Assembly (NCBI GenBank): GCA_963727715.1
Contig: CAVSGX010000005.1
Coordinates: 50,672 to 114,671 of the forward strand
Length of the DNA stretch: 64,000 nucleotides
Direction: 5' to 3'
Source of the DNA: an uncultured bacterium
GTDB lineage: Bacteria; Patescibacteriota; Minisyncoccia; Phycocordibacterales; DATDWN01
How positions within the stretch are numbered: the first letter of the stretch is position 1; every line of letters starts with the position of its first letter. Shown in pieces: positions 2,557 to 43,360 of this stretch. The notes under the pieces are model-generated. The model was not told the origin of the DNA. It made no database searches and saw only the letters and a list, made by a program, of their open reading frames with translations. A program made the translations under genes and the position numbers.

Positions 2557-2584
2557 TAAGTCTCAAATATATAAATAAAAAATC

Positions 2585-2607
2585 CGACCGCGAGGCCGGT
2601 TTTTTTG
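2585..2607 (+). terminator. Rho-independent terminator after rplK
   Basis: ccgaccgcgaggccgg hairpin followed by a T7 run. No rplA follows. Confidence 0.45.
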
Positions 2608-2678
2608 ACACACCAAAAAAATCTGTGAAGTGTTTTTTTGATTAAAAATGTGCTACTAATTGTTACAGAGAGGATAAA

Positions 2679-3032: not shown

Positions 3033-3111
3033 CTGGTCGCAGAGCATCGATGATTTGTCGTTGCTCTTTTCCTTTTTACTTAATTGTGTTAGTCTGGTGG
3101 TAGAGGAAATC

Positions 3112-4209: not shown

Positions 4210-4249
4210 AACAAAATCCAGTCGCCTGTGTGACTGGATGTTTTTTTGA

Positions 4250-5608: not shown

Positions 5609-5697
5609 AGTTACCTCTACGATTAGGATACGTTTTATTTTTACAAAGTCAATTGACTTTTTTAGACAAAATCGCTATTCTGGCGAAGGAGGTTTTC

Positions 5698-6318: not shown

Positions 6319-6320
6319 AG

Positions 6321-6353
6321 ACTTGGCGCGAAACTTGCACCAAGTTATTTTTT
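6321..6353 (+). terminator. Hairpin (acttgg...ccaagt) followed by a T-run
   Basis: Inverted repeat followed by TTTTTT. Confidence 0.4.
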
Positions 6354-6390
6354 ACTTCAAAAAATGTCGTGTCAATGATATAGTTGTCAT

Positions 6391-23911: not shown

Positions 23912-24553
23912 CTATGGAAATAAAGGACTCTCTTCTATTATTTTGTTTTTTATAATGTTGTAGTAGCTATCGTCGCCATTTTCATACTTTCGAAAAATAG
24001 CCCAACTGATAAAATCAACCGCTTGCAAACTTTTTTCTCCAGATGGAGTTTTGATAGACACCTTCATTGTCCCATTGTGATTGCTTTTTACTTGGCGGTT
24101 GAGGTAGCTTTTAAAATTTTCATTAAGAAATTTGTTTGTCTCTCTGCGCGAAGCTATCAACTCTATTTCCTTATCATTCGACACAATTTTTTTATTGTAA
24201 ATGCGATCAAGTAAAATATTGGTTACATAGTTATAAAGAACTTGTTTTTCGTCCTGCAATTTTGTAAAAACTTTTTTCTTGTTCAAATAAATAGACATTA
24301 TCGAACAATCACTTTCCGCCAATTTTTTCAGCAAGCGTTGTCTGGTAACAGGTTTTTCGTTTGTTGCATGTAATGTGCCTATTCTTCGTTTGATTTTTTT
24401 ATTTAACTGTGCGTGAATATTTTTGATAATTTTCTCGATTACTTTTTTGTTATTTTCAACAAATAAAAAAGTGATAACGAAAAAATTAGAAGTGCCTTTT
24501 TTCTTAAAATCAAATCCCAAATCTCCACTTTCATCTAAAAATATATACGCCAT
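23912..24553 (-). CDS. DUF3800-family protein
   Basis: Start motif MAYIFLDESGDLGF is typical of DUF3800. The track ORF extends into the repeat; start trimmed to this Met. Confidence 0.5.
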   Translation of the reverse strand: MAYIFLDESGDLGFDFKKKGTSNFFVITFLFVENNKKVIEKIIKNIHAQLNKKIKRRIGTLHATNEKPVTRQRLLKKLAESDCSIMSIYLNKKKVFTKLQDEKQVLYNYVTNILLDRIYNKKIVSNDKEIELIASRRETNKFLNENFKSYLNRQVKSNHNGTMKVSIKTPSGEKSLQAVDFISWAIFRKYENGDDSYYNIIKNKIIEESPLFP

Positions 24554-24569
24554 AAGGTTTTGCGGAGAC

Positions 24570-24735
24570 GGTGGGAGTTTCGGCCTCAAAAAATTCCACG
24601 CTGTCGCGTGGAATTTTTCTGGCCACCGGTTTGGCGACACGCCGTGCTCGGCGCGTGACCGCCAAACCGTTCGAATCCCACGCACAAAGCTTCGCTTTGC
24701 TCGCTCCTGCGGGGGGCGTGGGGTGAAGTTGGAAC
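24570..24735. repeat. Direct repeat copy B (att-like, same sequence as 22385-22559)
   Basis: 166 of about 170 nt are identical to copy A. Confidence 0.8.
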
Positions 24736-24765
24736 TTTTTTACTCAATACTGTATCATAGTATAT

Positions 24766-25695
24766 ATGGAAAAATTTGAAAATCTAACACCAGAGTCACC
24801 AAGAGTAGAAAGCCAGTGGCTTGAAGAACAATTCAAAAATGTAGAGATTATTGATGTTAATGGGCAAGAGGTTAAAGTTTTGGACATTATTCCACCAGAC
24901 CCAAAAATTGATGTGCCTGTGGTTATGGCTCCGGGTTATGGCACTTCGGGTCCTTTCCATATAAAAACAAATATTTTGGAGATGGTTCGTCTCGGCCGGC
25001 GAACTTTATTTATTGACGAACCACGAGGTATTGAAAATAAAATTGATGATGAAAACACGGAAGGAATACAAGAATATTTTTTGAAACAAATTTCTGCTCT
25101 CATTGGTGTCCTTGACGCAAAAGGAATTGATAAAGTTGATGTTGTTGGTAATTCAGAGGGTGGAATGTATGCGATTATCGCGGCGGACATTTACCCTGAA
25201 AGATTTAGTAATATTGTTTTATGTAATACCGGTGGAATGATTGGGGACGATTCAGCTCCAAAATTGATATATAGATTTGCTGTTGATGGACTTCGTTCGG
25301 CGGTTGATATGATGAAAAGAAAAAAGACAATGTCTGCCGGTGCTCAACAACAAATGAAAGAGGGAGTTGCCGGTTTTAATAAATATGTAATGGGCGAGCC
25401 AAAATCTTCCTATGACGAAATAAAGAGCATGGCTGGCACACAAATTCGCAATATGGTAAAAGAGGTTAAATCAGAGGGTGTTGGAATTTCAATTATTCAT
25501 ACGACAGATGACGGTGTTTTTCCTATGGCACGAGTTCAAAAAGAAACTTCACGAACTTCTCCCGACGAGGAACTTATTGTTGATGGCTTTTATTCCATAA
25601 GAGGCGGACATGGAGAGTTTTCAATAAATCCTGAACAATACACAAGACTTGCCGATGAGGCTTTATCTGCGCTGGAAGCAAAAAAGAAAAAATAA
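24766..25695 (+). CDS. Alpha/beta-hydrolase fold protein
   Basis: GNSEGG nucleophile elbow (GxSxG). Confidence 0.55.
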   Translation: MEKFENLTPESPRVESQWLEEQFKNVEIIDVNGQEVKVLDIIPPDPKIDVPVVMAPGYGTSGPFHIKTNILEMVRLGRRTLFIDEPRGIENKIDDENTEGIQEYFLKQISALIGVLDAKGIDKVDVVGNSEGGMYAIIAADIYPERFSNIVLCNTGGMIGDDSAPKLIYRFAVDGLRSAVDMMKRKKTMSAGAQQQMKEGVAGFNKYVMGEPKSSYDEIKSMAGTQIRNMVKEVKSEGVGISIIHTTDDGVFPMARVQKETSRTSPDEELIVDGFYSIRGGHGEFSINPEQYTRLADEALSALEAKKKK

Positions 25696-25986
25696 AAGGA
25701 AAAGGTGCCGAGATTTCTCCACGGCACCTGCACTGCTTCCTGATGTTTTAGTCGCCCTCTTTTTTCCTCCGTTTCCACTCTTTCCAGAGCTTCGGAGTTT
25801 CCATGAGGTTGATGATGAACATTGCCACCAAAATCAAAAAGAAAATGATTTTGCCGGCTTGAAAGAGCACAGAGAAAATCGTATGTAGCATGAATCTCAC
25901 TTTCTGCATTGATTATACACCATTACTTGTGTTTTTGTCAAGGTTTTTTACTTTTCCCAAAATATGGCGTAATGTAAAAGCCATAT

Positions 25987-26901
25987 ATGGACACCCTCAT
26001 CTCACAGCTAGACCACAAATACGAGCAATACAAAAAGAATATATCCGAGCATTTCATTGACTCCGACACTCTCGTTTTTGAGTCGGCATACGACTATTTT
26101 TGTATTACAGAAAAGCAACCAAAAATAAAAGAAATTTTAGAAAAAGATAGGCAGGATTTGGAGAAAAACAAAAAGGAAATTGTAAAGAAAAATAAGTCGT
26201 CGGAAACGCAAAAAGAATTTTTGGAAAGTGCCGAATTTAACTCGCTATCTTTCTGCTATGACGAAGTTTTGAAAGTGGTATATCTGCCGATGACTAAACA
26301 CAAAAAATCTCAAAATCCGTTATCAGAAAAAGATATTGTCGGCGATACTCAACTTTTAAGTGAAAGATTTTTGAACACAATGAATTTTTTGGTCGTGGGA
26401 TTTGTAAAGCTATGCAAAATTCCTATAAAGAAAGATGTAGAGGCCAGAACTGCTTTGTATAAAATGGCATACAATTTCAAGCGACCGAAATATCCGCTGT
26501 ATATGGAGCAGATACACAAATTGCTCGTCCCGCAACTCTTGGAAATTTACACGCAAAAGCCGGAAGTATCCGTTGTCAAAAACGCTCTACCGGTTATTTG
26601 TATTGACGACAAGAAAGGTATTTATTGCGAGTTAAACCCGAAAGCCGTGTATGCAATTTCTAGAATTAGTAAGCGGTTTAATCTCATCAAATATTTGCAA
26701 ACAAAAGGCTATTGCAAAATAGACGAATTGGCCGAATTAAAAAATCAAAAAGACACCGATACAATGAAAGCTATCACAGAAATAAATCGGTTATTCAGAA
26801 AAAATACTGGTCTAAATATTGACCTGATAAATCACTCTGACACTAGCGGATATTCGCTCAATAAAACAGAGCTGGATATAAAAATGATGCAAAGTTTTTA
26901 G
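25987..26901 (+). CDS. Hypothetical protein (island cargo)
   Basis: ORF only. Confidence 0.35.
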   Translation: MDTLISQLDHKYEQYKKNISEHFIDSDTLVFESAYDYFCITEKQPKIKEILEKDRQDLEKNKKEIVKKNKSSETQKEFLESAEFNSLSFCYDEVLKVVYLPMTKHKKSQNPLSEKDIVGDTQLLSERFLNTMNFLVVGFVKLCKIPIKKDVEARTALYKMAYNFKRPKYPLYMEQIHKLLVPQLLEIYTQKPEVSVVKNALPVICIDDKKGIYCELNPKAVYAISRISKRFNLIKYLQTKGYCKIDELAELKNQKDTDTMKAITEINRLFRKNTGLNIDLINHSDTSGYSLNKTELDIKMMQSF

Positions 26902-27009
26902 GTGGCGTTAATAACCACTTTTCCAAGACCTTGAAATAAAGGTCTTTTTGGCATGAACGCCACCCAAAGAAACAACGATTTTTCTTGTTCTGGGTGGGAG
27001 AATTAGTAT

Positions 27010-27306
27010 GTGAAAACATACAGCAAACCATTGGTCGAGAGGTGCAAAGAATATTTCCACCGTGTCCACAACACGGATATTTCGGACGACACGGCGAATG
27101 AATATTTGCGCTCGTTTGCAAAGTTGTATCTGGCTTTCGCTCGGCCAAACGGCGGGAGTCTCGGGAGCGACATAAATGTCGCGCGAGACTTCGCCGTTGC
27201 CGAGCCAGCCATTAGCAGTAGCGAGGATTTTTCCTTAATAGGTGGTTCCCGAATTCGTAATGCGGTAATTGACGATAAATTTCAGTTGGACTCAATGCAC
27301 AAATGA
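27010..27306 (+). CDS. Hypothetical protein
   Basis: ORF only. Confidence 0.25.
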   Translation: MKTYSKPLVERCKEYFHRVHNTDISDDTANEYLRSFAKLYLAFARPNGGSLGSDINVARDFAVAEPAISSSEDFSLIGGSRIRNAVIDDKFQLDSMHK

Positions 27307-27411
27307 AATTATACAGCTGTAAGGGTCTGGCCACAGAGGGTGGCATTGGTAACTTGCTGATTACCTAACATAAGAATAAAGAAGAAAAGAATAAAAATAT
27401 CTAAAAATACA

Positions 27412-28188
27412 ATGGGCTATAACAAATTTATCAAATCGGGTAATAATGTTGAGACTTACGAATATGAAAAAGACATTGTTATTCTGCGTGGTGGTAAAAA
27501 ATATCATTTTGATGATGAGGAGAAAAAAGAGATAGACAAAAATGCTGATTTGGACGAGGTGGAAGTCGGTAAGAGAATTGATAATGTCCGCAAAGCTAGT
27601 TTGGAATTTAGACGGCTTGTTTCTTCAAATTTAGATGATAAAAATTTTCCTCTTTTGCTGACTGTTACATACAAAGAAAATCAAACTGATTTGAAAAAAG
27701 TGTATTATGACCATAAACTATTTGTTCAAACTTTGAAATATACTTATGGAAAAAATCTGAAATATATCTGCGTGCCGGAATTTCAAAAAAGAGGAGCTGT
27801 TCATTTTCACGGTTTGTTTTGGGGACTGCCGGCTGGTATTCTTTTGCCGGAGCGTTTGCACGGATATTACGAAAATGCCTCTCCGACACTTTCTAAAATT
27901 TGGGACTTGGGTTTTGTTTTTCTCAAACCGACTGACGGGGACGATAAACTGTCCTCGTATCTTGCCAAGTATATGGCAAAGGCTTTTACCGACCCAAGAC
28001 TCAAACATCAAAAAGCCTACGCTTCGTCTCGCAATGTTAAACGGCCGTATGTGGTTTCCGGTATTACAAATATTTCTTTTTTGATTGATGATTATGTTGG
28101 TCTTGACGCTGTGCCGGTCAAGGAAAATAAATATCACACGACATATATGGGAGAGGCTCGGTATCGCATGTATAAAATTCCAAGTTGA
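27412..28188 (+). CDS. Rolling-circle replication initiator (HUH endonuclease, phiX174 gpA / P2 gpA-like two-tyrosine type)
   Basis: Motif I LLLTVTY, motif II VHFHGLFW (HUH), motif III YLAKYMAK (YxxKY). Confidence 0.7.
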   Translation: MGYNKFIKSGNNVETYEYEKDIVILRGGKKYHFDDEEKKEIDKNADLDEVEVGKRIDNVRKASLEFRRLVSSNLDDKNFPLLLTVTYKENQTDLKKVYYDHKLFVQTLKYTYGKNLKYICVPEFQKRGAVHFHGLFWGLPAGILLPERLHGYYENASPTLSKIWDLGFVFLKPTDGDDKLSSYLAKYMAKAFTDPRLKHQKAYASSRNVKRPYVVSGITNISFLIDDYVGLDAVPVKENKYHTTYMGEARYRMYKIPS

Positions 28189-28219
28189 ATTATTAAAATT
28201 TAAGAGTAATATCACAAAT

Positions 28220-29911
28220 ATGAAATTCATCGCCTATTATAGAAAATCAACCGAGAGCGAGGATAGACAACTTCTTTCTCTTGACGCGCAGGAAAGGGAA
28301 GCTCTGCAACTTTCGGAAAAATACAACCTCAATGTCGTCAAAACTTTCAAGGAAAGCATGTCGGCAAAGTCTGCCGGTCGTCCGCTTTTCAACGAAATGA
28401 TTAAAATGATTCAAGCCGGAAAAGCTGACGGAATTGTTTGTTGGAAATTAGATAGACTGGCTCGCAACTTCATTGACGGCGGTTTGGTTATTGATATGTT
28501 GCAACACGGTATCATTCAAGAAATCCAAACCTCCGAGGGTGTTTTTCGTCCGGGTGATGATGTTACTCTGCTGGCTTTGAAATTTGGTGTGGCAAATCAA
28601 TATAGCCGAAATTTGAGTGTTGATGTGAAGCGTGGCAACAGAGAAAAACTGGCTCATGGCGGTTGGCCGGGTCCAGCAAAGTTTGGCTACAAAAATGACA
28701 AAGCAGAAAAAACAATTGTCGTTGACCCTATCAAATCAAAATATGTCATTCGTATGTTTGAATTGTATTCCACTGGCAGTTACGGCTTCAAAGAAATTTC
28801 TCAAATTTTATTTGACGAGGGTTTGCGAACAGGCACGGGCAAAAAGTTTTTCTCCGGCAATATTCACCGACTCATGGACGAGCCATTTTACTACGGTATG
28901 ATGTTGCGAGACGGCAAACTTCACCCCGGCAATCATACACCTATTATTTCAAAAGAACTCTACGACAAAGTCCAAAATGTTTTGCACAACCGCCACCGAC
29001 CACGACCAAAAAATCATTTCTTTCCACTTCGCGGATTTATGACTTGTGAAAAGTGTGGTTGCGCTTTGACCGCTTCATTCAAAAAAGGCCACGCTTACTA
29101 TTACTGCACCAACGGAAAAGGTATTTGCTCTGAACACAAAACATATCTGCGAGAAAATACGCTATATCCCATTGTCGCAGGACTTTTTGACAAGCTAAAC
29201 ATTGACGAGGAAGCTATTGAAATGATGTATCAGTCTGCAAAAGAGGATATCGGGCTAGACGCTGAATACTCCGAGTCCATTCTGACAACCCTCAAAAGCC
29301 GTCTAAATGCTCTCACAGTCAAAGAAAGCAAACTGCTTGACGCTTTCCTTGCAGAAAGCATTACCAAAGATATTTACGACGGCAAAGCTCTTGAAATCCA
29401 AAACGAAAAAACCATACTCTCCAAACAAATATCCGATACAGAGAAAAAATCTGAAAATCTGGTTTCTACTTTGGAACCAGTCAAAAACATTTTTCTACGA
29501 GCCAGTAGAGCCAAAAAAGAATTTCTAGCCGGTGATGACCAGAAAAAGAGAGAAGTGGTAGAAACCATACTTTGGAACCTTTCCATTGAAAAGCAAAAAA
29601 TGGCTAATTACAAACTCAAAAGTCCATATTCCATACTCTCAAAACTACCTAAAAACCCTGATTTTCAGACCTTGCGGAGACGGTGGGATTCGAACCCACG
29701 AGAAGGTTACCCCTCTAACACCTTAGCAAGGTGCCGCTTTCGGCCACTCAGCCACGTCTCCAAAAAAATAAAAAAACTTACAATCACCTTACCATATCAG
29801 TGCGCAATCGTAAACGCGAAAATGTCGCGAGCGCCGGCGGAAAGCAGGGTGGCCCGAGCTTCGGAAAGGGTGGCGCCGGTGGTGGCCACATCGTCAATCA
29901 GAATGGCATAG
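28220..29911 (+). CDS. Large serine recombinase (resolvase/invertase N-terminal domain, recombinase domain and zinc ribbon)
   Basis: YYRKSTESEDRQLLSLDAQ catalytic-serine motif; recombinase domain; CEKCGC...YYYCTN zinc ribbon. The in-frame stop lies beyond the tRNA, so the true C-terminus is uncertain. Confidence 0.8.
   Translation: MKFIAYYRKSTESEDRQLLSLDAQEREALQLSEKYNLNVVKTFKESMSAKSAGRPLFNEMIKMIQAGKADGIVCWKLDRLARNFIDGGLVIDMLQHGIIQEIQTSEGVFRPGDDVTLLALKFGVANQYSRNLSVDVKRGNREKLAHGGWPGPAKFGYKNDKAEKTIVVDPIKSKYVIRMFELYSTGSYGFKEISQILFDEGLRTGTGKKFFSGNIHRLMDEPFYYGMMLRDGKLHPGNHTPIISKELYDKVQNVLHNRHRPRPKNHFFPLRGFMTCEKCGCALTASFKKGHAYYYCTNGKGICSEHKTYLRENTLYPIVAGLFDKLNIDEEAIEMMYQSAKEDIGLDAEYSESILTTLKSRLNALTVKESKLLDAFLAESITKDIYDGKALEIQNEKTILSKQISDTEKKSENLVSTLEPVKNIFLRASRAKKEFLAGDDQKKREVVETILWNLSIEKQKMANYKLKSPYSILSKLPKNPDFQTLRRRWDSNPREGYPSNTLARCRFRPLSHVSKKIKKLTITLPYQCAIVNAKMSRAPAESRVARASERVAPVVATSSIRMA
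29675..29761 (-). tRNA. tRNA-Ser (anticodon GCT), long variable arm
   Basis: Acceptor ggagacg/cgtctcc, anticodon loop ttGCTaa, T-loop ggttcgaatcc, 17-nt variable arm. Confidence 0.85.
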
Positions 29912-30474
29912 TAACCGGCCACACGGGGATCGGCCGAAAAACATCCGGAGAGATTTTGCAGTCTCTCGGTTCGTGATTCGGTTCGGCTTTGTGGTGGTGT
30001 GTTTTTGATTTTCTCTAGCCATTGCGGGGTGTAAAGTAAAATGTGCTCGGTATCGTAGGGCAAAATGGATTTGGCGATATGTTCGCTTTGGTTGTAACCG
30101 CGTTCTATCCGTCTCTCCACTGAAATCGGAATGGGTATGAGCAAAAATTTAGCCTCGTTGTCAAAAATCAAAATATCGGAAAGCAAAGCAACAATTTCGT
30201 CGTAAAAAATCTGCCCTATGAATTCCAAAGGTCTCAGATTTTCCCGATATTTTAATTCCCAGACAATAGCTCTGACGGTATTGTTTTTGTATTGGAACAA
30301 AGAATGAATCCAAGGCAAACCTTCTGTTTCCGACGCTTTCGGCAAATCAAGAATTTTTTCAGCGGTCAGTCTGGAAACCACCACGGCGTCTTTTCGGCGT
30401 GGGGCCAGCAGGTCAAAAAGTAAATCAAAGTAATATTTCGCCCGTTTTAAAATTTTCTTCATTGTATGGTACAA
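29797..30474 (-). CDS. comFC: ComF-family phosphoribosyltransferase (competence protein ComFC-like)
   Basis: PRTase motif ILIDDVATTGATL and a ComF-like N-terminus. Confidence 0.7.
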   Translation of the reverse strand: MYHTMKKILKRAKYYFDLLFDLLAPRRKDAVVVSRLTAEKILDLPKASETEGLPWIHSLFQYKNNTVRAIVWELKYRENLRPLEFIGQIFYDEIVALLSDILIFDNEAKFLLIPIPISVERRIERGYNQSEHIAKSILPYDTEHILLYTPQWLEKIKNTPPQSRTESRTERLQNLSGCFSADPRVAGYYAILIDDVATTGATLSEARATLLSAGARDIFAFTIAH

Positions 30475-30487
30475 TTATACTACCTTT

Positions 30488-31603
30488 ATGGCAGATTTTT
30501 TATCGTCAATCACCAATATTTTCTCAAAACCAAGCCCGTCCGTTCTCGGTGTGGATATCGGTTCCTCTTCTATCAAAGTGGTCCAGTTGCATCGCAAGGG
30601 TGGGCGAGCCATTTTGGAGACTTACGGAGAATTGTCTCTCGGTCCGTATGCTGGTGTCGGTGTTGGCCAAGCCACCAATTTGCCGGTTGATAAAATAGTC
30701 GAGGCCATGAACGATCTTTTGAACGAGAAAGAAGTGGCCATTACCAGCAAACTCTGTGGTGTGGCCATTCCCTTTGCTTCCAGCTTTATGACCGTCATCA
30801 ATATGCCTCCGGTTTCAAGCAAACAGCTGGCCCAAATTATTCCCATTGAAGCCAGAAAATACGTTCCGGCGCCGATATCTGAAGTGATGCTTGACTGGTC
30901 AATCATCCCGAAAGATATTGATACCAGACCCGATTCTTCTGGCAAAAAAGAACCGGATAAAATGGAAATTCTTCTTGTAGCCATTCACAACGGCACCCTA
31001 GATAAATATAAAGAAATTGTGAGCAGAAGCAACCTAGACAGCAGTTTTTTTGAAATTGAAATATTTTCCACCATGCGTTCCATTTTGGATCAGGAAATCT
31101 CGCCGGTTATGATTTTGGATATGGGCGCTATGAGCACCAAACTTTATATAGTTGAAAGGGGTATATTGCGTTCGTCTCACACCATCAACAAAGGTTCTCA
31201 AGAAGTGACAAATGTTTTGTCCAAAACTTTAGGCCTTCCTCTGCAAGATGCCGAGGTGTTGAAAAGAGAAAAAGGTCTCGGGTCCGTTGCTTCCGAAATC
31301 GGTGTGTCAGATATTATGTCCGTGACATTTGATTATATTTTTTCCGAAGCCAACCAAGTCGTTTTGGCTTATCAAAAGAGATATAACAAAAATGTCAGCA
31401 AGGTTTTTCTAGTCGGCGGTGGTAGCGCTCTTATTGGCTTGGAAGAAATTGCCAAAAAGAATTTTCAAACCGATGTTGAGAGTGGCAACCCGTTCTCCAA
31501 AGTGGTCGTGCCGGCTTTCTTAGAGGAAGTTTTGCGCAAAACCGGTCCGGAATTCACCGTGGCTGTCGGCTTGGCTCTGCGGAGGTTGCAGGAATTGGAT
31601 TAA
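30488..31603 (+). CDS. pilM: Type IV pilus assembly protein PilM (actin-like ATPase)
   Basis: LGVDIGSSSIKVVQL start; 371 aa. Confidence 0.8.
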   Translation: MADFLSSITNIFSKPSPSVLGVDIGSSSIKVVQLHRKGGRAILETYGELSLGPYAGVGVGQATNLPVDKIVEAMNDLLNEKEVAITSKLCGVAIPFASSFMTVINMPPVSSKQLAQIIPIEARKYVPAPISEVMLDWSIIPKDIDTRPDSSGKKEPDKMEILLVAIHNGTLDKYKEIVSRSNLDSSFFEIEIFSTMRSILDQEISPVMILDMGAMSTKLYIVERGILRSSHTINKGSQEVTNVLSKTLGLPLQDAEVLKREKGLGSVASEIGVSDIMSVTFDYIFSEANQVVLAYQKRYNKNVSKVFLVGGGSALIGLEEIAKKNFQTDVESGNPFSKVVVPAFLEEVLRKTGPEFTVAVGLALRRLQELD

Positions 31604-31635
31604 AAGGTTAACCATTTTGTTAAAATTATGATATA

Positions 31636-31923
31636 ATGCGAGGTATGAACACACTGCCTGAATTTTTCAAATCGATACTTTGGTCATATTCTTTTTATGA
31701 TTGCGATCCAAATAAAATGAAGAAGACCATCATTTCTCAAAGTCTAAATTATGGCTCTATAAAGCACTGGAAATGGATAAAATCTTTTTACGGAGATAAA
31801 GAAATCCTTGCTGTCCTATCCTCTATCCCGGAGACAGAAATACATTCAAAAACTAAAAAGCTGGTTGAGATTGGTTTTAATTTTAACAATTGGAACTATG
31901 CATCTAGAAGTTCTGACAGATAA
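31636..31923 (+). CDS. Hypothetical small protein, possibly the partner of the downstream AbiEii-like gene
   Basis: ORF overlaps the next gene in another frame; no recognisable domain. Confidence 0.2.
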   Translation: MRGMNTLPEFFKSILWSYSFYDCDPNKMKKTIISQSLNYGSIKHWKWIKSFYGDKEILAVLSSIPETEIHSKTKKLVEIGFNFNNWNYASRSSDR

Positions 31924-32533
31924 CACCAAAAAAGTTTTTGATAAAATTTCAAAATTTCAAAATTTGAAAGATGCTTTTTATCTTGCCGGTGGAACAGCTC
32001 TTGCGTTGCAATTAGGTCATCGCATCTCCGTTGACTTGGATTTTTTTTCAGATGAGCATATCAAAAAAACTTTTCTGTCAGACATTGAAGATTTTTTTGG
32101 ACAAACCGCGCAGGTCATAGCAAAAAGTCAAAATGAATTAACGATTATTATAAACGAAGTAAAAATCACTTTTCTGCATTATCCGTTCGCGCTTATTTAT
32201 CCATTAGAAAATAAAAATGAAATCATTCTGGCCGACTTAAAAGAAATAGCTTTAATGAAAGCCTATGCTATCGGTCGGCGACAGTCGCTGAAAGATTATA
32301 TTGATTTATACACCATTGTTTCCAGAAATTTAATGACCCTGGGTTCCATTGTGGAAAATTCAAAAAATAAATACGGAGAAGTTTTCAATGACCGTGTCTT
32401 TTTGGAGCAGTTGGTTTATATAAAAGACATTGACGACGAACCAATACAATGGATTGACAAATCTGTGTCAAAAGAAGAAATCAGAAGTTTTTTTGAAGCA
32501 GAAGTGAAAGTATATTTTAACACGCTGAAATAA
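31898..32533 (+). CDS. Nucleotidyltransferase AbiEii/AbiGii toxin-family protein
   Basis: FYLAGGTALALQLGHRISVDLDFF matches the AbiEii GGTAL...R.S.D.DF signature. Confidence 0.5.
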   Translation: MHLEVLTDNTKKVFDKISKFQNLKDAFYLAGGTALALQLGHRISVDLDFFSDEHIKKTFLSDIEDFFGQTAQVIAKSQNELTIIINEVKITFLHYPFALIYPLENKNEIILADLKEIALMKAYAIGRRQSLKDYIDLYTIVSRNLMTLGSIVENSKNKYGEVFNDRVFLEQLVYIKDIDDEPIQWIDKSVSKEEIRSFFEAEVKVYFNTLK

Positions 32534-34627: not shown

Positions 34628-36343
34628 ATGGACATTTTAAACATTGCTATAAAAAACGGTCTTGTTAAAAAAGATCAGGTTGAAAATATCAAAAATAAAA
34701 TCAACCGCTCTGGTAAAAAACCGGAACAGGTTCTTTTGGAAGAAGGAGTTTCTCCGGAAGATATTTTGAAGCTAAAGGCAGAATACTTTAATATCCCGAC
34801 AAGGAGTGTCAATTTGGAAAGCATAACAGATTCCATTTTGGGTTATATTCCGCAGGAATCAGCCGAACATTATCATTTTGTGCCGATAGGAGACAGCGAA
34901 GGTGTCTTGGAAATTGGCGTAACCAACCCTGATAACATAAGTGCCATTGATGCTTTGAATTTCATATCGACTGAAATCGGTATGCCTTTCAAAATTTTTC
35001 TCATATCGGAAGAAGATTTTACCAAAGTCTTTTCTCTTTATAAAGGTTTGACAGGCGAAGTTTCAAAGGCTTTGAATGAATTGGAAGTTGAATTAAAAAC
35101 AAAAAGTCAAAAAGAACCGGAAAAAGTGGCAGGCAATATTGTCGGAAGCAGCGCCAAAATCAGCGAGGATGCACCTGTGACTAAAATTGTGGCCACCATT
35201 TTGCGTTATGCTTCAGACGGCAACGCCTCTGATATCCATATTGAGCCATGGAGAGAAAATATTAAAGTAAGGTTTAGGGTGGATGGGGTGATGAACACCA
35301 GTTTGATTTTGCCTTCAAAAGTTCACTCGGCTGTTGTTGCGCGCATTAAAATTCTTTCCAACATGAGACTTGATGAAAAACGAAAACCTTTGGACGGAAG
35401 GTTTAGCGCGCGCATTGAAAATCGCCGGATTGATTTTCGGGTCTCCACTTTTCCGACATATTTTGGCGAGAAAATAGAAATGCGACTTTTGGATCAGGAA
35501 AAAGGCGTTAAAAAATTAGACGAACTCGGCTTCTCAGACAAAAATTTGACAATCATCAAGAAAGCCATCGATAAGCCTTATGGTCTTATTCTTTTGTCTG
35601 GCCCGACCGGCTCTGGGAAAACATCCACTCTGTATTCAATGTTGAATGAAATGGACCGCGAACATTTGAATATTTTGTCTCTGGAAGATCCGATTGAATA
35701 CAACATTGAGGGTATATCACAATCGCAAGTTCAGCCGGAAATTGATTACACTTTTGCTTCAGGTTTGCGCACCACCTTGCGTCAAGATCCGGACGTTATC
35801 ATGGTCGGCGAGATTCGCGACAAGGAGACCGCACAACTAGCCATTCAAGCCGCTTTGACCGGTCACCTTGTTCTTTCAACCATACACACCAATTCAGCCG
35901 TCGGGGTCATTCCAAGACTGATTGATATGGGAGTTGACCCATATCTTATCGCTCCGACCCTGATCTTGGCCATTGCCCAACGTCTGGTTCGCGAACTTTG
36001 TCCGAGCTCAGGCAAGCCGGTGCCAGTTGAGGACAGTCTGAAAATAATGTTAGACAAGCAGTTCAGTGATTTGCCGGAGAAATACCTGAAAGAGTTAGAC
36101 TTTACGGATACTGTTTATTCAATATCGCCAAGTTCTGATTGTCCGGCTGGAGTAAGAGGGCGACTGGCTGTGTTGGAAGTTTTTGAGATGGACAAGGATA
36201 TAGAGGAAGTTATTCTGAAAAGCCCTACAGAAACGGCTTTGACCAAAATCGTAAGAGGTAAAGGAATGCTGACCATGAAAGAGGACGCCATTCTCAAAGC
36301 CATGCATCGCCTCATCCCGTTTGAGGAGATTAACACGTTATAA
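34628..36343 (+). CDS. pilB: Type IV pilus assembly ATPase PilB (GspE family)
   Basis: N-terminal GspII domain, Walker A GPTGSGKT, Asp/His boxes. Confidence 0.9.
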   Translation: MDILNIAIKNGLVKKDQVENIKNKINRSGKKPEQVLLEEGVSPEDILKLKAEYFNIPTRSVNLESITDSILGYIPQESAEHYHFVPIGDSEGVLEIGVTNPDNISAIDALNFISTEIGMPFKIFLISEEDFTKVFSLYKGLTGEVSKALNELEVELKTKSQKEPEKVAGNIVGSSAKISEDAPVTKIVATILRYASDGNASDIHIEPWRENIKVRFRVDGVMNTSLILPSKVHSAVVARIKILSNMRLDEKRKPLDGRFSARIENRRIDFRVSTFPTYFGEKIEMRLLDQEKGVKKLDELGFSDKNLTIIKKAIDKPYGLILLSGPTGSGKTSTLYSMLNEMDREHLNILSLEDPIEYNIEGISQSQVQPEIDYTFASGLRTTLRQDPDVIMVGEIRDKETAQLAIQAALTGHLVLSTIHTNSAVGVIPRLIDMGVDPYLIAPTLILAIAQRLVRELCPSSGKPVPVEDSLKIMLDKQFSDLPEKYLKELDFTDTVYSISPSSDCPAGVRGRLAVLEVFEMDKDIEEVILKSPTETALTKIVRGKGMLTMKEDAILKAMHRLIPFEEINTL

Positions 36344-37875: not shown

Positions 37876-39084
37876 ATGCTTTATAAATACACATCATTAA
37901 ATCAATCTGGAGAAAAGTCGCAAGGTAAAGTTGAAGCCATCTCGGCTGACGTGGCTATTTCCATTTTGCAAAAAAGGGGGTTGATTATTTCGGATATATC
38001 ACCGGATGAAGAAAAAAAATTCTCGATTTTTGGAGATATTGCTTTTTTTAATCATGTTTCCAACAAAGAAATTGTAATTTTGTCCAGACAAATAGCCACT
38101 CTCTTTCAAGCCCAAGTCTCGGCTCTGCGGGTTTTCCGTTTATTGGCCGAACAAACAGAAAATAAACTTCTGCAAAAATATTTGTTTGACATCGTAGATG
38201 ATTTGCAGGGAGGGTCGTCTATTTCAATTGCCCTTAGCCACCACCCGGACGCTTTCTCCGATTTTTATGTCAATATGGTCAAGGCCGGTGAGGAATCTGG
38301 CAAACTGGACGAGACATTTGCTTCTTTGGCCGACCACCTGGATCGTTCCTACGAAGTTGTTTCAAAAGCCAAAAGTGCTTTGATTTACCCAGCTTTTGTT
38401 ATCGCCACTTTCATCGGAGTGATGATTATTATGATGACCTTCATCATCCCAAAAATCAGCACGATGCTAGCCGACTCCGGACAGCAATTGCCGATTTACA
38501 CCAAAGTGGTTTTGGGCATAAGCAGTCTTTTTGTCAATTATGGTCTGTATATGGCTATCGGTGCTATCATATTGGCTTTTTTCCTTTGGAAATATATCAG
38601 AACGGAAGAAGGTTCGGCCAATCTGGATAAACTGGAATTGAATGTTCCGTATATTGGCACCCTGTATCGCAAATTATATCTCTCTCGCATTGCCGACAAT
38701 CTGAACACCATGATTATAAGTGGTATCCCGATACTCCAAGCTTTGGAAATCACCATGGATGTTGTTGAAAATTATGTTTTCAAAAGTATTCTGGAAAACA
38801 GCATAAAAGAAGTTAAAGGGGGAAGTTCTCTGTCCAGCGCTTTTGCCGCGCACCCGGATATCCCGAGTGTTATGGTTCAAATGATAAAGGTCGGCGAGGA
38901 AAGCGGTGAGTTGGGTAACATTCTGAAAACACTGGCCAAATTTTACGAGAGAGAAGTGACAACGGCTGTAGACACCCTGGTCAGTATGATAGAGCCGGCT
39001 ATGATTGTGGCTCTTGGTCTGGGTGTGGGTATCTTGATGGCGTCGGTTTTGATGCCGATATATAATATAGCTGGTACTTCTTAA
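37876..39084 (+). CDS. pilC: Type IV pilus inner-membrane platform protein PilC (two GspF domains)
   Basis: T2SSF-domain repeats; 402 aa. Confidence 0.85.
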   Translation: MLYKYTSLNQSGEKSQGKVEAISADVAISILQKRGLIISDISPDEEKKFSIFGDIAFFNHVSNKEIVILSRQIATLFQAQVSALRVFRLLAEQTENKLLQKYLFDIVDDLQGGSSISIALSHHPDAFSDFYVNMVKAGEESGKLDETFASLADHLDRSYEVVSKAKSALIYPAFVIATFIGVMIIMMTFIIPKISTMLADSGQQLPIYTKVVLGISSLFVNYGLYMAIGAIILAFFLWKYIRTEEGSANLDKLELNVPYIGTLYRKLYLSRIADNLNTMIISGIPILQALEITMDVVENYVFKSILENSIKEVKGGSSLSSAFAAHPDIPSVMVQMIKVGEESGELGNILKTLAKFYEREVTTAVDTLVSMIEPAMIVALGLGVGILMASVLMPIYNIAGTS

Positions 39085-39096: not shown

Positions 39097-39555
39097 ATGA
39101 AAAATAATAAAGGTTTTACGATTATTGAACTTCTGGTGGTTGCGGCCATTGTAGCTTTGATGGCGTCGGTTGTTTTTGCCGCTATGCGAGGCGCTGCAAA
39201 CAAAGGCAGTAATTCCACCATCAAGGGAGATATGCATTTTGTTCGTCAACAAGCGGCTTTGGTTTACGATAATGCCGGGGGCAAATATGACAACATTTGT
39301 GCCGATGCCACCATACAAAGAAGTATGGTTTCCATACAAAACGCCAGTAGCGCCACAAATGCCAATAACTATGCAATTGGAACAGGTGGCTCGGCGGGCA
39401 CGGTCACTTGTCATTCTAGCTCTTCCGGTTGGGCTGTTGAATCTCCTCTAAAAGTAGCCGAAGGTTCTAATACTTTCTGGTGCGACGATTGGGCTGGGAC
39501 TTCCAAAGGCGAAGTTGGCTCCACGCTTACAGCCAACACGGTAACTTGCCCGTAA
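39097..39555 (+). CDS. Type IV pilin (leader MKNNKG|FTIIELLVV)
   Basis: Class III signal peptide with a G-1/F+1/E+5 cleavage motif. Confidence 0.75.
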   Translation: MKNNKGFTIIELLVVAAIVALMASVVFAAMRGAANKGSNSTIKGDMHFVRQQAALVYDNAGGKYDNICADATIQRSMVSIQNASSATNANNYAIGTGGSAGTVTCHSSSSGWAVESPLKVAEGSNTFWCDDWAGTSKGEVGSTLTANTVTCP

Positions 39556-39565
39556 AGTTTACCCG

Positions 39566-39628
39566 CACACTAAGTTTGCCATTGTGTTTTTTCAAAACAC
39601 AGGGCAAAGTGATGGCAAACTTAGTGTG
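39566..39628 (+). promoter_or_regulatory. 17-bp perfect inverted repeat (cacactaagtttgccat / atggcaaacttagtgtg) forming a long hairpin between two pilin genes
   Basis: Degenerate member of the pilin-start inverted-repeat family; probable terminator/attenuator. Confidence 0.5.
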
Positions 39629-39775
39629 TAGGTTTATCCACAGTGGCATATTAGCCAATTTTTTGACTGGCTGTATAATGTAATCACTCGTTTTTAGACA
39701 AACGACAATCTCTCCAAGAGAAGGTCGAAAGCAAATTATAAGAAGTTATTATTAATAGTTTTAAATAAAAATTAT

Positions 39776-40207
39776 ATGAATAGAAGAGGTTTTACTTTAA
39801 TTGAACTTTTGGTGGTTATCGCCATCATTGGTATCTTGTCATCAATCGTTTTGGCATCGCTTAACACAGCCAGAGGCAAGGGTTCTGATGCTGCGGCCAA
39901 AGAGAACCTAAACAACATGCGCGCTCAAGCTGAGTTAGTCTACGACTCAAGCGGTCAGTCTTATGCCACAGTTTGCGCAAACACAAACGTTACATCCGCT
40001 CTAACCAGTGCTGGAACAGCTGAAGGTTTTGGTGCATGGTCTGGCACAAGCGCTGCCACTCTCGGGTGCCAGAGTGTCGCAGCCACATGGGTAGCATGGG
40101 TTCGACTGGATAAAGGAGCAGGATCGTCATTTACCTACTGCGCGGATAACACAGGTATGGCCACAACAACTACCACTGGGTATACAACAGCTTCCACAAA
40201 GTGCTAG
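39776..40207 (+). CDS. Type IV pilin (leader MNRRG|FTLIELLVV)
   Basis: Prepilin motif. Confidence 0.75.
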   Translation: MNRRGFTLIELLVVIAIIGILSSIVLASLNTARGKGSDAAAKENLNNMRAQAELVYDSSGQSYATVCANTNVTSALTSAGTAEGFGAWSGTSAATLGCQSVAATWVAWVRLDKGAGSSFTYCADNTGMATTTTTGYTTASTKC

Positions 40208-40235
40208 TTTATTCTTTTGCAGATTTCTCAAAAAA

Positions 40236-40262
40236 CCGGTTTTGGCCGGTTTTTTGTTTTGT
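40236..40262 (+). terminator. Rho-independent terminator (aaaaaaccgg ttttgg ccggtttttt)
   Basis: Hairpin plus T-run after the pilin. Confidence 0.5.
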
Positions 40263-40290
40263 AATTTGTTATAAAGTTGTATAATGTATT

Positions 40291-40419
40291 CGCACACCAA
40301 TTTTGGCATCGTTGCACGGTGTTTTCACAATATAAGCAATTATATTTAAAATAACGAGACATTATTTTGTGATAAATACATAACATGCAACAAAAACACA
40401 ATGCCAAATTTGGTGTGCG
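40291..40419 (+). promoter_or_regulatory. Inverted repeat cgcacaccaattttggcat ... atgccaaatttggtgtgcg (19 bp, about 90-nt spacer) immediately upstream of pilD
   Basis: Member of the repeat family described in the findings. Confidence 0.5.
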
Positions 40420-40428
40420 AATAAATTT

Positions 40429-41265
40429 ATGCTTGGTGTTTTTATTTTTTACGCTTTTGCTCTGGGCGCCATTGTCGGCAGTTATCTCAATGTCGTGGCT
40501 TTGCGTTACGGCACAGAGATGTCGTCATTTAAAGGGCGTTCAATCTGTTTTCACTGTGGTCGAAATTTGAAGTGGTTTGAGATGATTCCAATCTTCAGTT
40601 TTATATTTTTAGGAGGCAAATGCCGGACATGCAAAGCCAGATTGTCTCCGCAGTATTTTTTGGCCGAAATTACCACAGGTATCGTTTTTGTCGGGATTTT
40701 CCTACGCCAATATTATCTGTGGCCGGTCTACTCTGTTTTGTCTCACGGATTTTCGTGGTCAACTTTGTTTTTCTTTTATTATATTGTTGTTTTCTCTCTT
40801 TTGATTATCATGGCTTTGTATGATATTCGGCATAAAATCATCCCGGACAATCTAGTTTACACTTTCATAATTCTATCGGTGGCCAAATTGTTTTTGTTCA
40901 TCTATGTCAAAGGTTTGCCAATCTCCACAATAAATGTTTTTAATTTGTTTTCTCCTCTTATTCTTTCTGTTCCTTTTGCCTTACTCTGGTATTTTTCCCG
41001 TGGCCGATGGCTTGGTTTCGGCGACGCCAAGCTGATTTTCGGCATTGGAGCTCTGCTCGGTTTTGTTTCCGGCTTGTCGGCCGTTACTTTGGCTTTTTGG
41101 CTCGGTAGCATTTGGGTTTTGTTTTTCTGGCTTTACCAACAATTTTCTGGCCGGCCAAGAATCGGCTGGCAATCCGAAATCCCCCTAGCTCCCTTTTTGA
41201 TTTTGGCCGCATTTATTATTTTTCTCTGGCATTTTGATTTCTTTAATCTGAATTTAATATTTTAA
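40429..41265 (+). CDS. pilD: Prepilin peptidase PilD (A24 family)
   Basis: CxxC...CxxC zinc motif followed by a polytopic A24 domain. Confidence 0.85.
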   Translation: MLGVFIFYAFALGAIVGSYLNVVALRYGTEMSSFKGRSICFHCGRNLKWFEMIPIFSFIFLGGKCRTCKARLSPQYFLAEITTGIVFVGIFLRQYYLWPVYSVLSHGFSWSTLFFFYYIVVFSLLIIMALYDIRHKIIPDNLVYTFIILSVAKLFLFIYVKGLPISTINVFNLFSPLILSVPFALLWYFSRGRWLGFGDAKLIFGIGALLGFVSGLSAVTLAFWLGSIWVLFFWLYQQFSGRPRIGWQSEIPLAPFLILAAFIIFLWHFDFFNLNLIF

Positions 41266-41921
41266 TGAAAAATAAGACATCCAAAAAAGGATTTACTCTT
41301 GCGGAAATGGTGATCTGCATAGCTATTGTCGGTGCGATTTCAGCTGTGGCGATGTTCAGTTATACACAATTCAGCGACAATCTGAATTTATCTTCAGCCA
41401 GCCAGGAAATTGCTTTGGAAATTCGTCAAGCCCAAATCTATGGGGTTAGCGTCAAGGAAAATGCCGTGGGTAGTGGTGTTTTTACCAGTGGTTATGGTTT
41501 TCAGGCCAGTCTAAGCGATCCGACCAGCTACTATATTTTCGTTGATTTGAACAATAACGGTAAATATGATGGCGGTCCCAATTGTAGTGCAAGCCCTGAG
41601 TGTGTTGAAAAAATTTCTTTGCGCAACAGTGTTTCAATTACCGGTATTTGTGGCATGGCTTTTGGTGGGGTATCAGTTTCGTGCCCTCTGGACGCGGCTA
41701 TTAAAACAATGAACATAGTCTTTTTACGGCCCGATCCGACTGCCCTGATTCGTTTTTTGAATATTTCCAACAATTTTTACGTTGGGGGCGGAATTTATCA
41801 GCCCAATATCAATTGTCCCACGTGCGGGACTTTCCAAACCGGCCAGATTGTGCTGACCTCTGCCGGAGGTAAAACCGCAAATATTATCATTCAGAATACC
41901 GGTCAAGTATCAATTCAATAA
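41265..41921 (+). CDS. Minor pilin / pseudopilin (leader MKNKTSKKG|FTLAEM)
   Basis: Prepilin N-terminus. Confidence 0.6.
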   Translation: MKNKTSKKGFTLAEMVICIAIVGAISAVAMFSYTQFSDNLNLSSASQEIALEIRQAQIYGVSVKENAVGSGVFTSGYGFQASLSDPTSYYIFVDLNNNGKYDGGPNCSASPECVEKISLRNSVSITGICGMAFGGVSVSCPLDAAIKTMNIVFLRPDPTALIRFLNISNNFYVGGGIYQPNINCPTCGTFQTGQIVLTSAGGKTANIIIQNTGQVSIQ

Positions 41922-41967
41922 AATTTCAATGGTTTTGAAACAAACATCAAAAAAAGAAAAAGGATTT

Positions 41968-42106
41968 ACCCAGACACCAACTTTGGCATTGTTCCGCTTT
42001 TTCAAAAATTTCTATGATAAAATTCAGTCTTTTATAAAAAAAACAAATCACAATACTATTTCCGAGAGCGAAACACAAAAAGCCATGCCAAAGTTGGTGC
42101 CCGGGT
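41968..42106 (+). promoter_or_regulatory. Inverted repeat acccagacaccaactttggcat ... atgccaaagttggtgcccgggt. The 3' arm contains the pilin start codon (MPKLV).
   Basis: Read from the sequence; start codon at 42085. Confidence 0.5.
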
Positions 42107-42630
42107 TTACTTTAGTGGAGCTGATTGTTTCTATCGCTATGTTCAGTGTTGTAATGGTTGTTTGCATGAGTTCTGTTTTGATTATGCTTGATTCCAACCG
42201 CAAGTCCCAAGCCCAGAGAACTTTGGTGGACAATCTAAGCTATTCTCTTGATGAAATATCCAGATCGGCCAGATTCGGCACGGTCTATCATTGTGGAGGT
42301 GGCACATTAAATTTGACTCAAGATTGCCAGGGTGGCGACACTTCTTTTACCGTTTTGGATCAAACTGGAACTCAAGTAACATATAAATTAAGTGGTAATA
42401 GGGTGGCCAAAACAATCGGTGGAGTGGATTATTATTTGACATCGCCTGATGTTACAATCAACAAGTTGTTTTTCTTTGTTATTGGTTCAGATCCATTTTC
42501 CACTGGTAATATACAGCAACCATGGGTGGGAATTATCATAGGTGGTTCTGCGGGGGTTAATACCAACAGCCAATCATCCACCACTTTGGAAACAGTGGTA
42601 TCGCAGAGAAAGTTGGATATATATAATTGA
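42085..42630 (+). CDS. Minor pilin (leader MPKLVPG|FTLVELIV)
   Basis: Prepilin motif. The track ORF extends upstream from 41929; the short canonical leader is preferred. Confidence 0.55.
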   Translation: MPKLVPGFTLVELIVSIAMFSVVMVVCMSSVLIMLDSNRKSQAQRTLVDNLSYSLDEISRSARFGTVYHCGGGTLNLTQDCQGGDTSFTVLDQTGTQVTYKLSGNRVAKTIGGVDYYLTSPDVTINKLFFFVIGSDPFSTGNIQQPWVGIIIGGSAGVNTNSQSSTTLETVVSQRKLDIYN

Positions 42631-42670
42631 TATGTTTAACAAAAAAGGAAAAAAATTAAAATCTGGGTTT

Positions 42671-42813
42671 ACCCACACACCAACTTTGGCATTATTCCGC
42701 TTTTTCAATAGATTTTTCTACAAATTCTAATTTACAATGAAAAAAATAAATTTTATTAAAATATTTCGGGGCGGAACACAAAAAGCTATGCCAAAGTTGG
42801 TGTCTGGGTTTAC
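42671..42813 (+). promoter_or_regulatory. Inverted repeat acccacacaccaactttggcat ... atgccaaagttggtgtctgggt. The 3' arm contains the pilin start codon.
   Basis: Read from the sequence; start codon at 42788. Confidence 0.5.
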
Positions 42814-43360
42814 ACTAGTAGAGGCCCTTGTGGCCATCGGCATTTTATCGTTATCGGTTATGGCTGCCTCTATGGCTGTTCAAAGCAGTTTATCATCCTC
42901 ATACTACGCCAGAGATCAAGTGACCGCTTTTTATTTGATTCAAGATGCGGTTGAATATGTAAGAAATCTTCGGGATATCAACGCCCTAAGAAATGCCAAA
43001 GTTATCGCCGCTGGCCCTGGGACGGTTGATTGGCTCAATGGCATATCCCAAGTTCCTGCTGACCCCTGCTATTTCGGCAAATTTTGTATGGTAAGTCCCG
43101 CAGAAATAAGCCCCAACAACTTAGTTACCTGTGGCGACGGTAGCTCAAGCAGTCTTTGCAGTCCTATCAGACAAGATAATGCCACCGGTAAATTTGGCTA
43201 TCTCAATTCAAATTGGCCACAAACCAAATTCACAAGATTTATGCAAATCAGCCAGAGTTCTACTACCGAAATCATTTTAACCATCACAGTCACCTGGAAA
43301 GACAATGCTATTGGCAATACCAGTGTTTCTGTTCAAGAATGGTTGCGTAATACCAGATGA
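42788..43360 (+). CDS. Minor pilin, PilV-like (leader MPKLVSG|FTLVEALV)
   Basis: Prepilin motif. Confidence 0.55.
   Translation: MPKLVSGFTLVEALVAIGILSLSVMAASMAVQSSLSSSYYARDQVTAFYLIQDAVEYVRNLRDINALRNAKVIAAGPGTVDWLNGISQVPADPCYFGKFCMVSPAEISPNNLVTCGDGSSSSLCSPIRQDNATGKFGYLNSNWPQTKFTRFMQISQSSTTEIILTITVTWKDNAIGNTSVSVQEWLRNTR

Follow-up and report, generated by a model that had tools for sequence, protein, structure and literature searches.

Inverted-repeat hairpins at pilin genes of a Patescibacteria genome are probably copies of a widespread miniature transposable element

Introduction

Patescibacteria are tiny, host-dependent bacteria in which type IV pili have been implicated in attachment and DNA uptake. 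We analysed a 64-kb stretch of DNA from an uncultured member of this group (64,000 nucleotides of contig CAVSGX010000005.1, assembly GCA_963727715.1; "the window" hereafter means this whole stretch). Its type IV pilus locus contains four inverted repeats, two of which run into the start codons of minor pilin genes. What are these repeats, and what do they do at the beginning of a pilin gene? An earlier note on this DNA had proposed a control element shared by the genes of the pilus cluster or, alternatively, the remnant of a duplicated pilin 5' coding segment. Our results point in another direction. The four hairpins are probably copies of a MITE (miniature inverted-repeat transposable element) that belongs to a family widespread in Patescibacteria and that lands repeatedly on the first codon of the mature pilin, where the element end would supply a new start codon and leader.

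Four element copies in a type IV pilus locus

The inverted-repeat pairs lie at 39561-39582/39612-39633, 40283-40312/40398-40427, 41968-41989/42085-42106 and 42671-42692/42788-42809, where the earlier note had placed them, and no further pair occurs in the whole window. All four are found within 3.3 kb of the pilus locus. Their arms are 90-95% complementary and are separated by 29 nt in copy 1, 85 nt in copy 2 and 95 nt in each of copies 3 and 4, for which a distance of 60-90 nt had been given before. A 15-mer core with up to three mismatches has 12 matches against 2.8 expected, and eight of these 12 are the arms. The 3' arm of copies 3 and 4 indeed reads ATG CCA AAG TTG GTG, in frame with GFTLVE of the pilin open reading frame (ORF).

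Three features are absent from the earlier note: leaders ending in GFT upstream of the 5' arms, 4-bp flanking repeats (TTTA in copies 1, 3 and 4) and a family that is dispersed through whole genomes. Full canonical prepilin leaders are present in the pilin frame directly 5' of the left arms, from ATG 41929 for copy 3 (MVLKQTSKKEKGFT) and from ATG 42632 for copy 4 (MFNKKGKKLKSGFT). A second GFT, followed by LVE..., lies 3' of the element, and the GFT-to-GFT distance is 141 nt in both cases. Copy 3 with its duplication adds 141 nt in frame and without stop codons. The relic frame of minor pilin C enters copy 4, which is itself in frame, and stops at TAA 42728-42730. Copy 1 is flanked by TTTA at 39558-39561 and 39633-39636, and its arms carry three compensated differences from those of copies 3 and 4; short derivatives of this kind also occur at other loci (67 bp in L007, 68 bp in L002). 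Copy 2 has the flanks TGTA and TAAA, which are not an exact duplication, and the pilD ATG (40429) is located 7 nt beyond its gene-proximal end rather than the 10 nt reported previously. Coordinates of these features are listed in Table 1.

Table 1. Element copies, pilin leaders and associated features of the pilus locus (window coordinates)
Feature	Position	Strand	Remarks
PilB gene	34628-36343		First gene of the pilus gene order
First major pilin gene	39097-39555		
MITE copy 1	39562..39632	.	71-bp internally deleted derivative; ends CCCGC...GTAGG; between the two major pilin genes
Second major pilin gene	39776-40207		
Hairpin resembling an intrinsic terminator	40229-40256		Between second major pilin and PilD
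TATAAT, -10-like hexamer	40280..40285	+	Exactly 3 nt outside gene-distal end of copy 2; consensus match, putative
MITE copy 2	40289..40421	+	133 bp; subfamily ends T(T/C)CGN...GCG(A/G)A then TAAA
Promoter-like site inside copy 2	40324..40352	+	TTCACA-17-TAAAAT, 10/12 matches, towards pilD; without conservation across the family
Prepilin peptidase PilD	40429..41265	+	A24_N_bact + Peptidase_A24 on identical gene in L001; directly 3' of copy 2
Relic (ancestral) prepilin leader, minor pilin B	41929..41968	+	MVLKQTSKKEKG-FT; ends in left TTTA (41965-41968)
MITE copy 3	41969..42105	+	137 bp in Phe-Thr codons; right-hand TTTA 42106-42109
Right terminal repeat of copy 3	42085..42105	+	ATG CCA AAG TTG GTG... 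GGG = MPKLVPG, replacement leader; last codon = Gly-1
Minor pilin B gene	42085..42630	+	Counted from element-borne ATG; alternative long form from 41929
Relic prepilin leader, minor pilin C	42632..42671	+	MFNKKGKKLKSG-FT
MITE copy 4	42672..42808	+	137 bp; TTTA duplication 42668-42671 and 42809-42812
Minor pilin C gene	42788..43360	+	From element-borne ATG; MPKLVSG-FTLVEALV...

A dispersed family of miniature elements

The family census was a pattern scan that needed both arms and covered one genome per species; copy statistics refer to the matches listed. At least 117 stretches were found in about 50 Patescibacteria assemblies (counted by accession prefix), which are labelled as Paceibacterota, Parcubacteria, Zambryskibacteria, Campbellbacteria, Taylorbacteria, Kaiserbacteria and "Saccharibacteria". 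Three matches to unrelated taxa appear to be accidental, and a "Nitrospira" metagenome-assembled genome (MAG) has one that may come from a mis-binned contig. Single genomes carry many copies on differing contigs (JBAZZC01 has at least 18, spread over about 10 contigs, and JBBUFE01 at least 12), and the neighbours are all different genes. The paired-arm pattern had no matches in viral contigs.

Copies are non-coding and 129-137 bp long, with short forms of 67-71 bp. Their terminal inverted repeats measure 21-22 nt and have the consensus CCCGCACACYAANTTTGSCAT, with mismatches that cluster at positions 4, 5 and 13. The interior is A+T-rich and little conserved except for a sub-terminal second stem (TTGC/GCAA) and a one-sided A-rich tract. 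With the ends taken as CCCNN-ACAC...GTGT-NNGGG, an identical 4 nt lies outside both ends in 56 of the 115 copies among the matches listed, where chance would give fewer than one, and other offsets or lengths of the flanking repeat yield essentially none. The duplicated tetramers are TAAA/TTTA (21), CATA/TATG (15), CAAG/CTTG (6) and others, and the symmetrised target logo is G-YWWR-C. Size, lack of coding capacity, terminal repeats, target-site duplication and many dispersed copies together identify the element as a MITE, i.e., a non-autonomous DNA transposon. A literature search found no paper that describes a Patescibacteria MITE of this kind or contains its repeat sequences, and a 2024 review of prokaryotic MITEs makes no mention of start codons, signal peptides, pilins, rRNA or Patescibacteria. 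The family is apparently undescribed and common in Patescibacteria.

At position 13 of the repeat (the central N of CAANTTTG), the two arms either pair as C/G or have the same base (A-A in 13 and T-T in 7 of 53 copies), which leaves a recurrent mismatch in the centre of the stem.

Insertion into prepilin genes

Copies 3 and 4 interrupt two minor prepilin genes at the TTTA of their Gly-Phe-Thr codons, where GGN-TTT-ACN contains G-TTTA-C, a perfect target. Either terminal repeat, read outward, gives ATG-CCA-AAG-TTG-GTG-NNN-GGG, or MPKLVxG, in frame with Phe+1. It follows from these two properties that the sense strand after insertion always reads MPKLVxG and then TTT-A(CN), Phe+1-Thr. At the level of the predicted coding sequence, the element brings a start codon, a leader that is short and basic and the obligatory Gly-1, and the duplicated TTTA supplies Phe+1. 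The idea of a duplicated pilin 5' segment had the direction reversed: MPKLV derives from the element's repeat, and the ancestral leader survives upstream.

Comparison with other pilins points to the same history. Excision in silico gave a perfect prepilin N-terminus for each of 13 copies found under strict detection. Relaxed detection raises the number of capped pilin genes to 16, in 11 loci, and excision restores the canonical N-termini of these as well. The repeat recurs at pilin loci of other Patescibacteria, where the earlier note had suggested looking for it, but the family is not pilin-specific. Minor pilin B without its element becomes KQTSKKEKGFTLVELIVSIA, the form seen in orthologues that have no interruption (P0003-P0010, for example). 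Most homologues of the copy-3 pilin begin M..KKGFTLVELLV and have no insertion, and about 8 of 81 homologues of the copy-4 pilin have a doubled GFT, with ordinary leaders in the remainder (most of 8-22 residues). The majority of orthologues of both pilins lack the insertion, and the capped paralogue varies by genome. Related insertions at the same codon were found in other organisms (P0011 and L002, with two 68-bp copies; P0018 and L003, with 81 nt). An arm of copy B in L002 has changed from CAT/ATG to CCT/AGG, so that pairing is retained and the ATG is gone. Across all loci, PilD and minor pilins, and not a transposase, are the commonest neighbours of the element (all-against-all clustering of 641 ORFs).

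How could such genes be expressed? Insertion splits the prepilin gene after the old leader and rebuilds it as MPKLVxG-FT.... Ribosomes might initiate on the relic leader and translate right across the element, a route that would need an in-frame open insertion such as copy 3. Alternatively, they might start at the element-borne AUG, with translation of the relic ORF across the left arm melting the 21-bp stem that buries this codon; copy 4, in which the relic frame stops in the loop, would fit the second route. Of the 16 capping copies, 12 keep the frame of the relic leader (p = 0.0008 against an expectation of one third, although lengths are common within subfamilies) and 10 have no stop in that frame. 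Openness in this frame is found in 6 of 12 strictly detected pilin copies versus 30 of 212 non-pilin copies (p = 0.005). The ATG in the repeat is kept by 13 of the 16 capping copies, and two of the three copies without it are in frame and open from the relic start.

The same arrangement could in principle serve a programmed translational bypass of the phage T4 gene 60 or mitochondrial 'byp' type, in which ribosomes take off at the first TTT-ACN, skip the hairpin and land on the duplicate. The duplication does give matching codons either side of a stable hairpin, and the relic leaders are intact. We regard this as extremely unlikely. The putative take-off site is followed by neither a stop nor a rare codon (CAG or CAC comes after the first TTT-ACC), most copies have kept the in-frame ATG of the repeat, and bypass does not require the in-frame open copies that are enriched at pilins.

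Two further observations concern pilin 5' ends. Tandem MITE copies (5130-5263 and 5268-5402) precede one minor pilin in L105, and the 'relic leader' of the second copy (..IPKLVCG) is encoded by the repeat of the first, which indicates repeated hits at one site. In L006 (2337-2481), the orthologous minor pilin of another metagenome contains an unrelated 23-nt inverted repeat (TTTTCAAATTCCAAAACTTCTTT...) just after the start codon; the added 150 nt keep the reading frame and leave it open. The 5' ends of pilin genes seem to gather palindromic insertions from more than one family.

Hairpin folding and regulation

Folding bears out the stable hairpins predicted in the earlier note, with energies of -37 to -48 kcal/mol for the four copies and z values of -5.9 to -8.7 against mononucleotide shuffles. 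That note had also proposed that the hairpin hides both the start codon and the ribosome-binding site of the pilin genes. In the full-length untranslated RNA of copies 3 and 4, the element-borne AUG is predicted to be 99% paired, and removal of the left arm leaves it 17-43% unpaired, which is in keeping with the first half of the proposal. The second half is not borne out because the 12 nt upstream of the AUG are predicted to be 75-91% unpaired.

These values, together with the clustering of four copies so close to one another in the pilus locus, speak for a cis-acting RNA hairpin dedicated to hiding pilin start codons, as a means of controlling translation or processing. Such a role is nevertheless improbable. 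A control element of the pilus cluster does not agree with a family that also lies beside unrelated genes, at tRNA 5' ends and within 23S rRNA in dozens of assemblies, that is flanked by target-site duplications and that most orthologous pilins lack. An Rfam search of the region returned only generic miRNA-hairpin models, far below gathering scores. Stem mismatches have no sense-strand G-U excess of the kind expected from RNA-specific covariation (6 G-U versus 16 A-C at stem positions 1-21 in 53 gene-oriented copies). No conserved internal sigma-70-type promoter was found in 53 copies, where 16 sense and 11 antisense hits occur at scattered positions. The relic leader ORF of the pilins has kept its own ATG and upstream context and spans the left arm, so that translating ribosomes should open the stem. 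The lack of a G-U excess, the presence of the element on start codons of essential genes, the position of the left arm in the relic ORF and the absence of a conserved promoter all argue against a purpose-built regulator. The hairpin would instead be a by-product of the terminal repeats and may have a regulatory side-effect.

Insertion at other genes, tRNAs and rRNA

Capping is not confined to pilins. Among the matches listed, at least 56 of 118 copies have an end with the start of a long outward ORF close by, at -21 to +13 nt. In one subfamily the duplication TATG includes the start codon, and the capped genes are all different. Genes capped at the start codon include ftsZ, rpoD, trmD, argJ, a pilT-like ATPase and an aminotransferase, with Pfam domains that begin near residue 1. 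Since ftsZ, rpoD, trmD and argJ are essential genes, an element on the start codon is evidently no strong block to expression. The start codon falls inside the duplication in 20 of 101 copies, where random intergenic sites give 1.3% and intergenic YWWR sites 6.2% (p = 4e-6).

RNA genes are also affected. The last G of the element is tRNA nucleotide +1 in three copies (L035:4385-4519, L088:5479-5614 and L103:5640-5775; also in L062). The duplication CTTG in these tRNA-abutting copies corresponds to tRNA nucleotides 2-5, so that the tRNA is intact and the MITE lies at its mature 5' end. L035, L062 and L103 have the same tRNA sequence and may represent one inherited insertion or a hot spot. In L018, a Campbellbacteria MAG, four MITE copies occur inside the 23S rRNA gene (1780-7385, minus strand) and one just upstream, all within 5346-7553; the gene also contains a group I intron (2656-2906).

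The element is oriented. Of the 52 cases that could be classified, 43 have the end with the second stem and then the A-rich tract turned towards the adjacent gene (43:9, p = 2e-6). Non-pilin TTTA/TAAA copies occur in both orientations relative to the duplication, which makes retention a more likely source of the bias at pilins than an asymmetric choice of target. Because the gene-facing end is so strongly non-random, the data suggest that only insertions that present the A-rich, unpaired sub-terminal tract to the gene are retained. A selfish element would then persist where its repeat can replace what it displaces, with selection acting on orientation.

The same polarity bears on an inverton, in which a recombinase would flip the approximately 95-bp segment between the repeats and thereby phase-vary the pilins. 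A short segment between inverted repeats beside surface-structure genes is what such a switch looks like, and a large serine recombinase gene is encoded 10 kb away (28088-29908). We consider an inverton very unlikely because orientation is polar over 52 copies, the 4-bp direct repeats are a signature of transposition, copies lie in rRNA and at tRNA genes, and an independent Logan assembly has the same orientation as the window. No invertase-type gene was found at 36-47 kb of the window, where the ORFs are PilB/T/C, pilins, PilD, LigA and GatCA, and the one recombinase present, 10 kb off, is a large serine integrase.

One subfamily has an additional feature. In seven copies at unrelated genes, a TAYWAT hexamer (often TGnTAYAAT) stands exactly 3 nt beyond the gene-distal end: copy 2 of the window (40280-40285) and the distal flanks of L041, L049, L089, L104, L109 and L123. 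Six of the seven have a long ORF that starts 3-8 nt past the other end, and L041 has an ATG there with no ORF of at least 70 aa called. The mobile unit of the copy 2 subfamily may carry an extended -10 promoter.

The principal rival to a selfish MITE is that the element has been domesticated as a portable 5' leader that serves translation initiation, 5'-UTR (untranslated region) stability or, in one subfamily, promotion of transcription, with the capped genes, pilins among them, forming through their common hairpin a dispersed post-transcriptional regulon under, e.g., RNase III. The 43:9 orientation towards genes speaks for it, as do the excess of start codons within duplications over YWWR sites, the largely unpaired A-rich tract just upstream of the element-borne AUG and the shared TAYWAT position in the copy 2 subfamily. 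Copies in 23S rRNA imply, in addition, that the RNA hairpin is removed or tolerated. Domestication is nonetheless rather unlikely, given that no conserved internal promoter was detected, that the stem lacks RNA-specific covariation and that about half of the copies are not beside a gene start.

A broader and equally tentative idea, to which we give only a small share of belief, is that of a mobile 'gene-cap'. Its repeat would have been shaped to let the element enter at a 5' boundary without harm to the downstream unit and put its own signal in place of the upstream one, and the shared hairpin would couple dozens of capped genes, type IV pilins included, to one post-transcriptional input. The boundaries seen are the start codon, tRNA nucleotide +1 and the first mature-pilin codon. 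The signals supplied may be the ATG, the Gly-1 leader, the A-rich unpaired tract and, in one subfamily, a -10 box, and the input may be RNase III or ribosome-dependent melting.

Evidence against a simple MITE and the search for a parent transposon

Several results weigh against the reading of the four hairpins as MITE copies. The copy 2 subfamily (25 copies) has no clean duplication at any of the offsets and lengths examined. Protein-level patterns for the exact empty site of copies 3 and 4 had no matches in JGI metagenomes. No autonomous partner with the same terminal repeats turned up in about 0.9 Mb of loci, searched for lone repeats 0.7-3 kb apart and by the clustering of 641 ORFs; scans of the genome collection covered terminal repeats up to 600 nt apart. 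The window does contain an IS30-like element (16479-17493) between rplE and rplF of a ribosomal protein operon, with a 318-aa transposase (16480-17433, minus strand; HTH_38 and weak rve), and its terminal repeats (about 18 nt, CCTCAAGTAGGACAG) are unrelated to those of the MITE. Finally, the approximately 3-fold start-codon capping over the YWWR null, taken with the orientation bias, says that the element is more than a passive passenger.

Other classes of element were dropped: IS200/IS605-type (TTAC-targeting) and integron attC readings given the terminal repeats and variable 4-bp duplications, and intein and intron readings on size and absence of any splicing signature.

Comparison with known systems and significance

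Bacterial MITEs in general are among the closest parallels, for example the Correia repeat-enclosed elements (CREE) of Neisseria, from which promoters can arise and which RNase III binds or cleaves (PMC2649163; review PMC10969869). CREE and the present element are alike in being about 100-155 bp long and non-coding, with terminal inverted repeats, a target-site duplication and many dispersed copies that often lie at gene 5' ends. CREE are co-transcribed as hairpins and can affect neighbouring genes, as the present element may be and do. The two differ in their duplication, which is 4 bp (YWWR) here and TA in CREE, and in host phylum. Unlike CREE, the repeat of the present element carries an in-frame ATG and a Gly codon that replace a prepilin leader, and the host start codon is often inside the duplication. 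The two repeats are not known to be related in sequence.

Rickettsia palindromic elements (RPE) offer a second comparison. They are palindromes of about 100-150 bp in reduced genomes that have inserted in frame into protein genes and are translated (review PMC10969869). The pilin copies that are in frame (12/16) or open (10/16) are RPE-like, a resemblance that is functional only. RPE sit inside mature protein domains, whereas the present element lies in a cleaved leader, always at a single codon, and could also serve as a new start. Set against RPE, it also has clear 4-bp duplications and terminal repeats.

Structured translational operators in 5'-UTRs and split ribosome-binding sites, of the phage T4 gene 38 type, are RNA structures that evolved at single loci and have RNA-level covariation. 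The present hairpin resembles them in being stable and in lying at or next to an initiation codon, where it could either conceal the AUG or move upstream signals nearer to it. It differs in that pairing comes from the terminal repeats of a transposon and has no sense-strand G-U bias.

Candidate phyla radiation (CPR) bacteria have many short (<200 bp), non-intron, ORF-less insertions in their rRNA genes, which have been suggested to be intervening sequences cut by RNase III (PMC11270868). The four L018 copies inside a 23S rRNA gene are similar to these insertions and to 23S rRNA intervening sequences in general. The CPR insertions were not identified as a transposable family in that study (PMC11270868), and the present element differs in that it is also found at mRNA 5' ends, tRNA 5' ends and pilin leaders. 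The L018 copies may be examples of the uncharacterised short insertions in CPR rRNA genes, at least some of which the family may thereby identify.

The analysis brings to light a high-copy mobile element of reduced genomes, one that rewrites pilin leaders, occupies start codons of essential genes, lies against tRNAs and has entered 23S rRNA. It accounts for the odd "double GFT" or MPKLV-type pilin starts that are inconsistently annotated by gene callers. It also gives a case from nature of a transposon end that contributes both a start codon and the residue for signal-peptide cleavage. Should the orientation bias reflect function, the element would be a rare case of a MITE that acts as a portable translation-initiation module.

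Genomic surroundings in the window

An identical contig is present in run ERR11594402 of the source metagenome. The pilus genes are arranged in the order PilB, response regulator, PilT, PilC, two major pilins, terminator-like hairpin, PilD, minor pilins (three or four), LigA and GatCA. Pfam scans were run on 30 window ORFs of at least 170 aa that lie outside 8175-11687, 34.6-39.1 kb and 40.4-52.1 kb. Genes of mobile or defence type occur at 23915-32530, where a DUF3800 protein, the large serine recombinase (28088-29908) and an AbiEii-like protein (31898-32530) are found beside PilM (30488-31600). A stand-alone reverse transcriptase (RVT_1, 326 aa) is encoded at 58891-59868. Within the pilus locus, an exact 15-nt direct repeat, TTGATGGCGTCGGTT, is shared by the 3' end of pilC (39034-39048) and the 5' part of the first major pilin gene (39157-39171).

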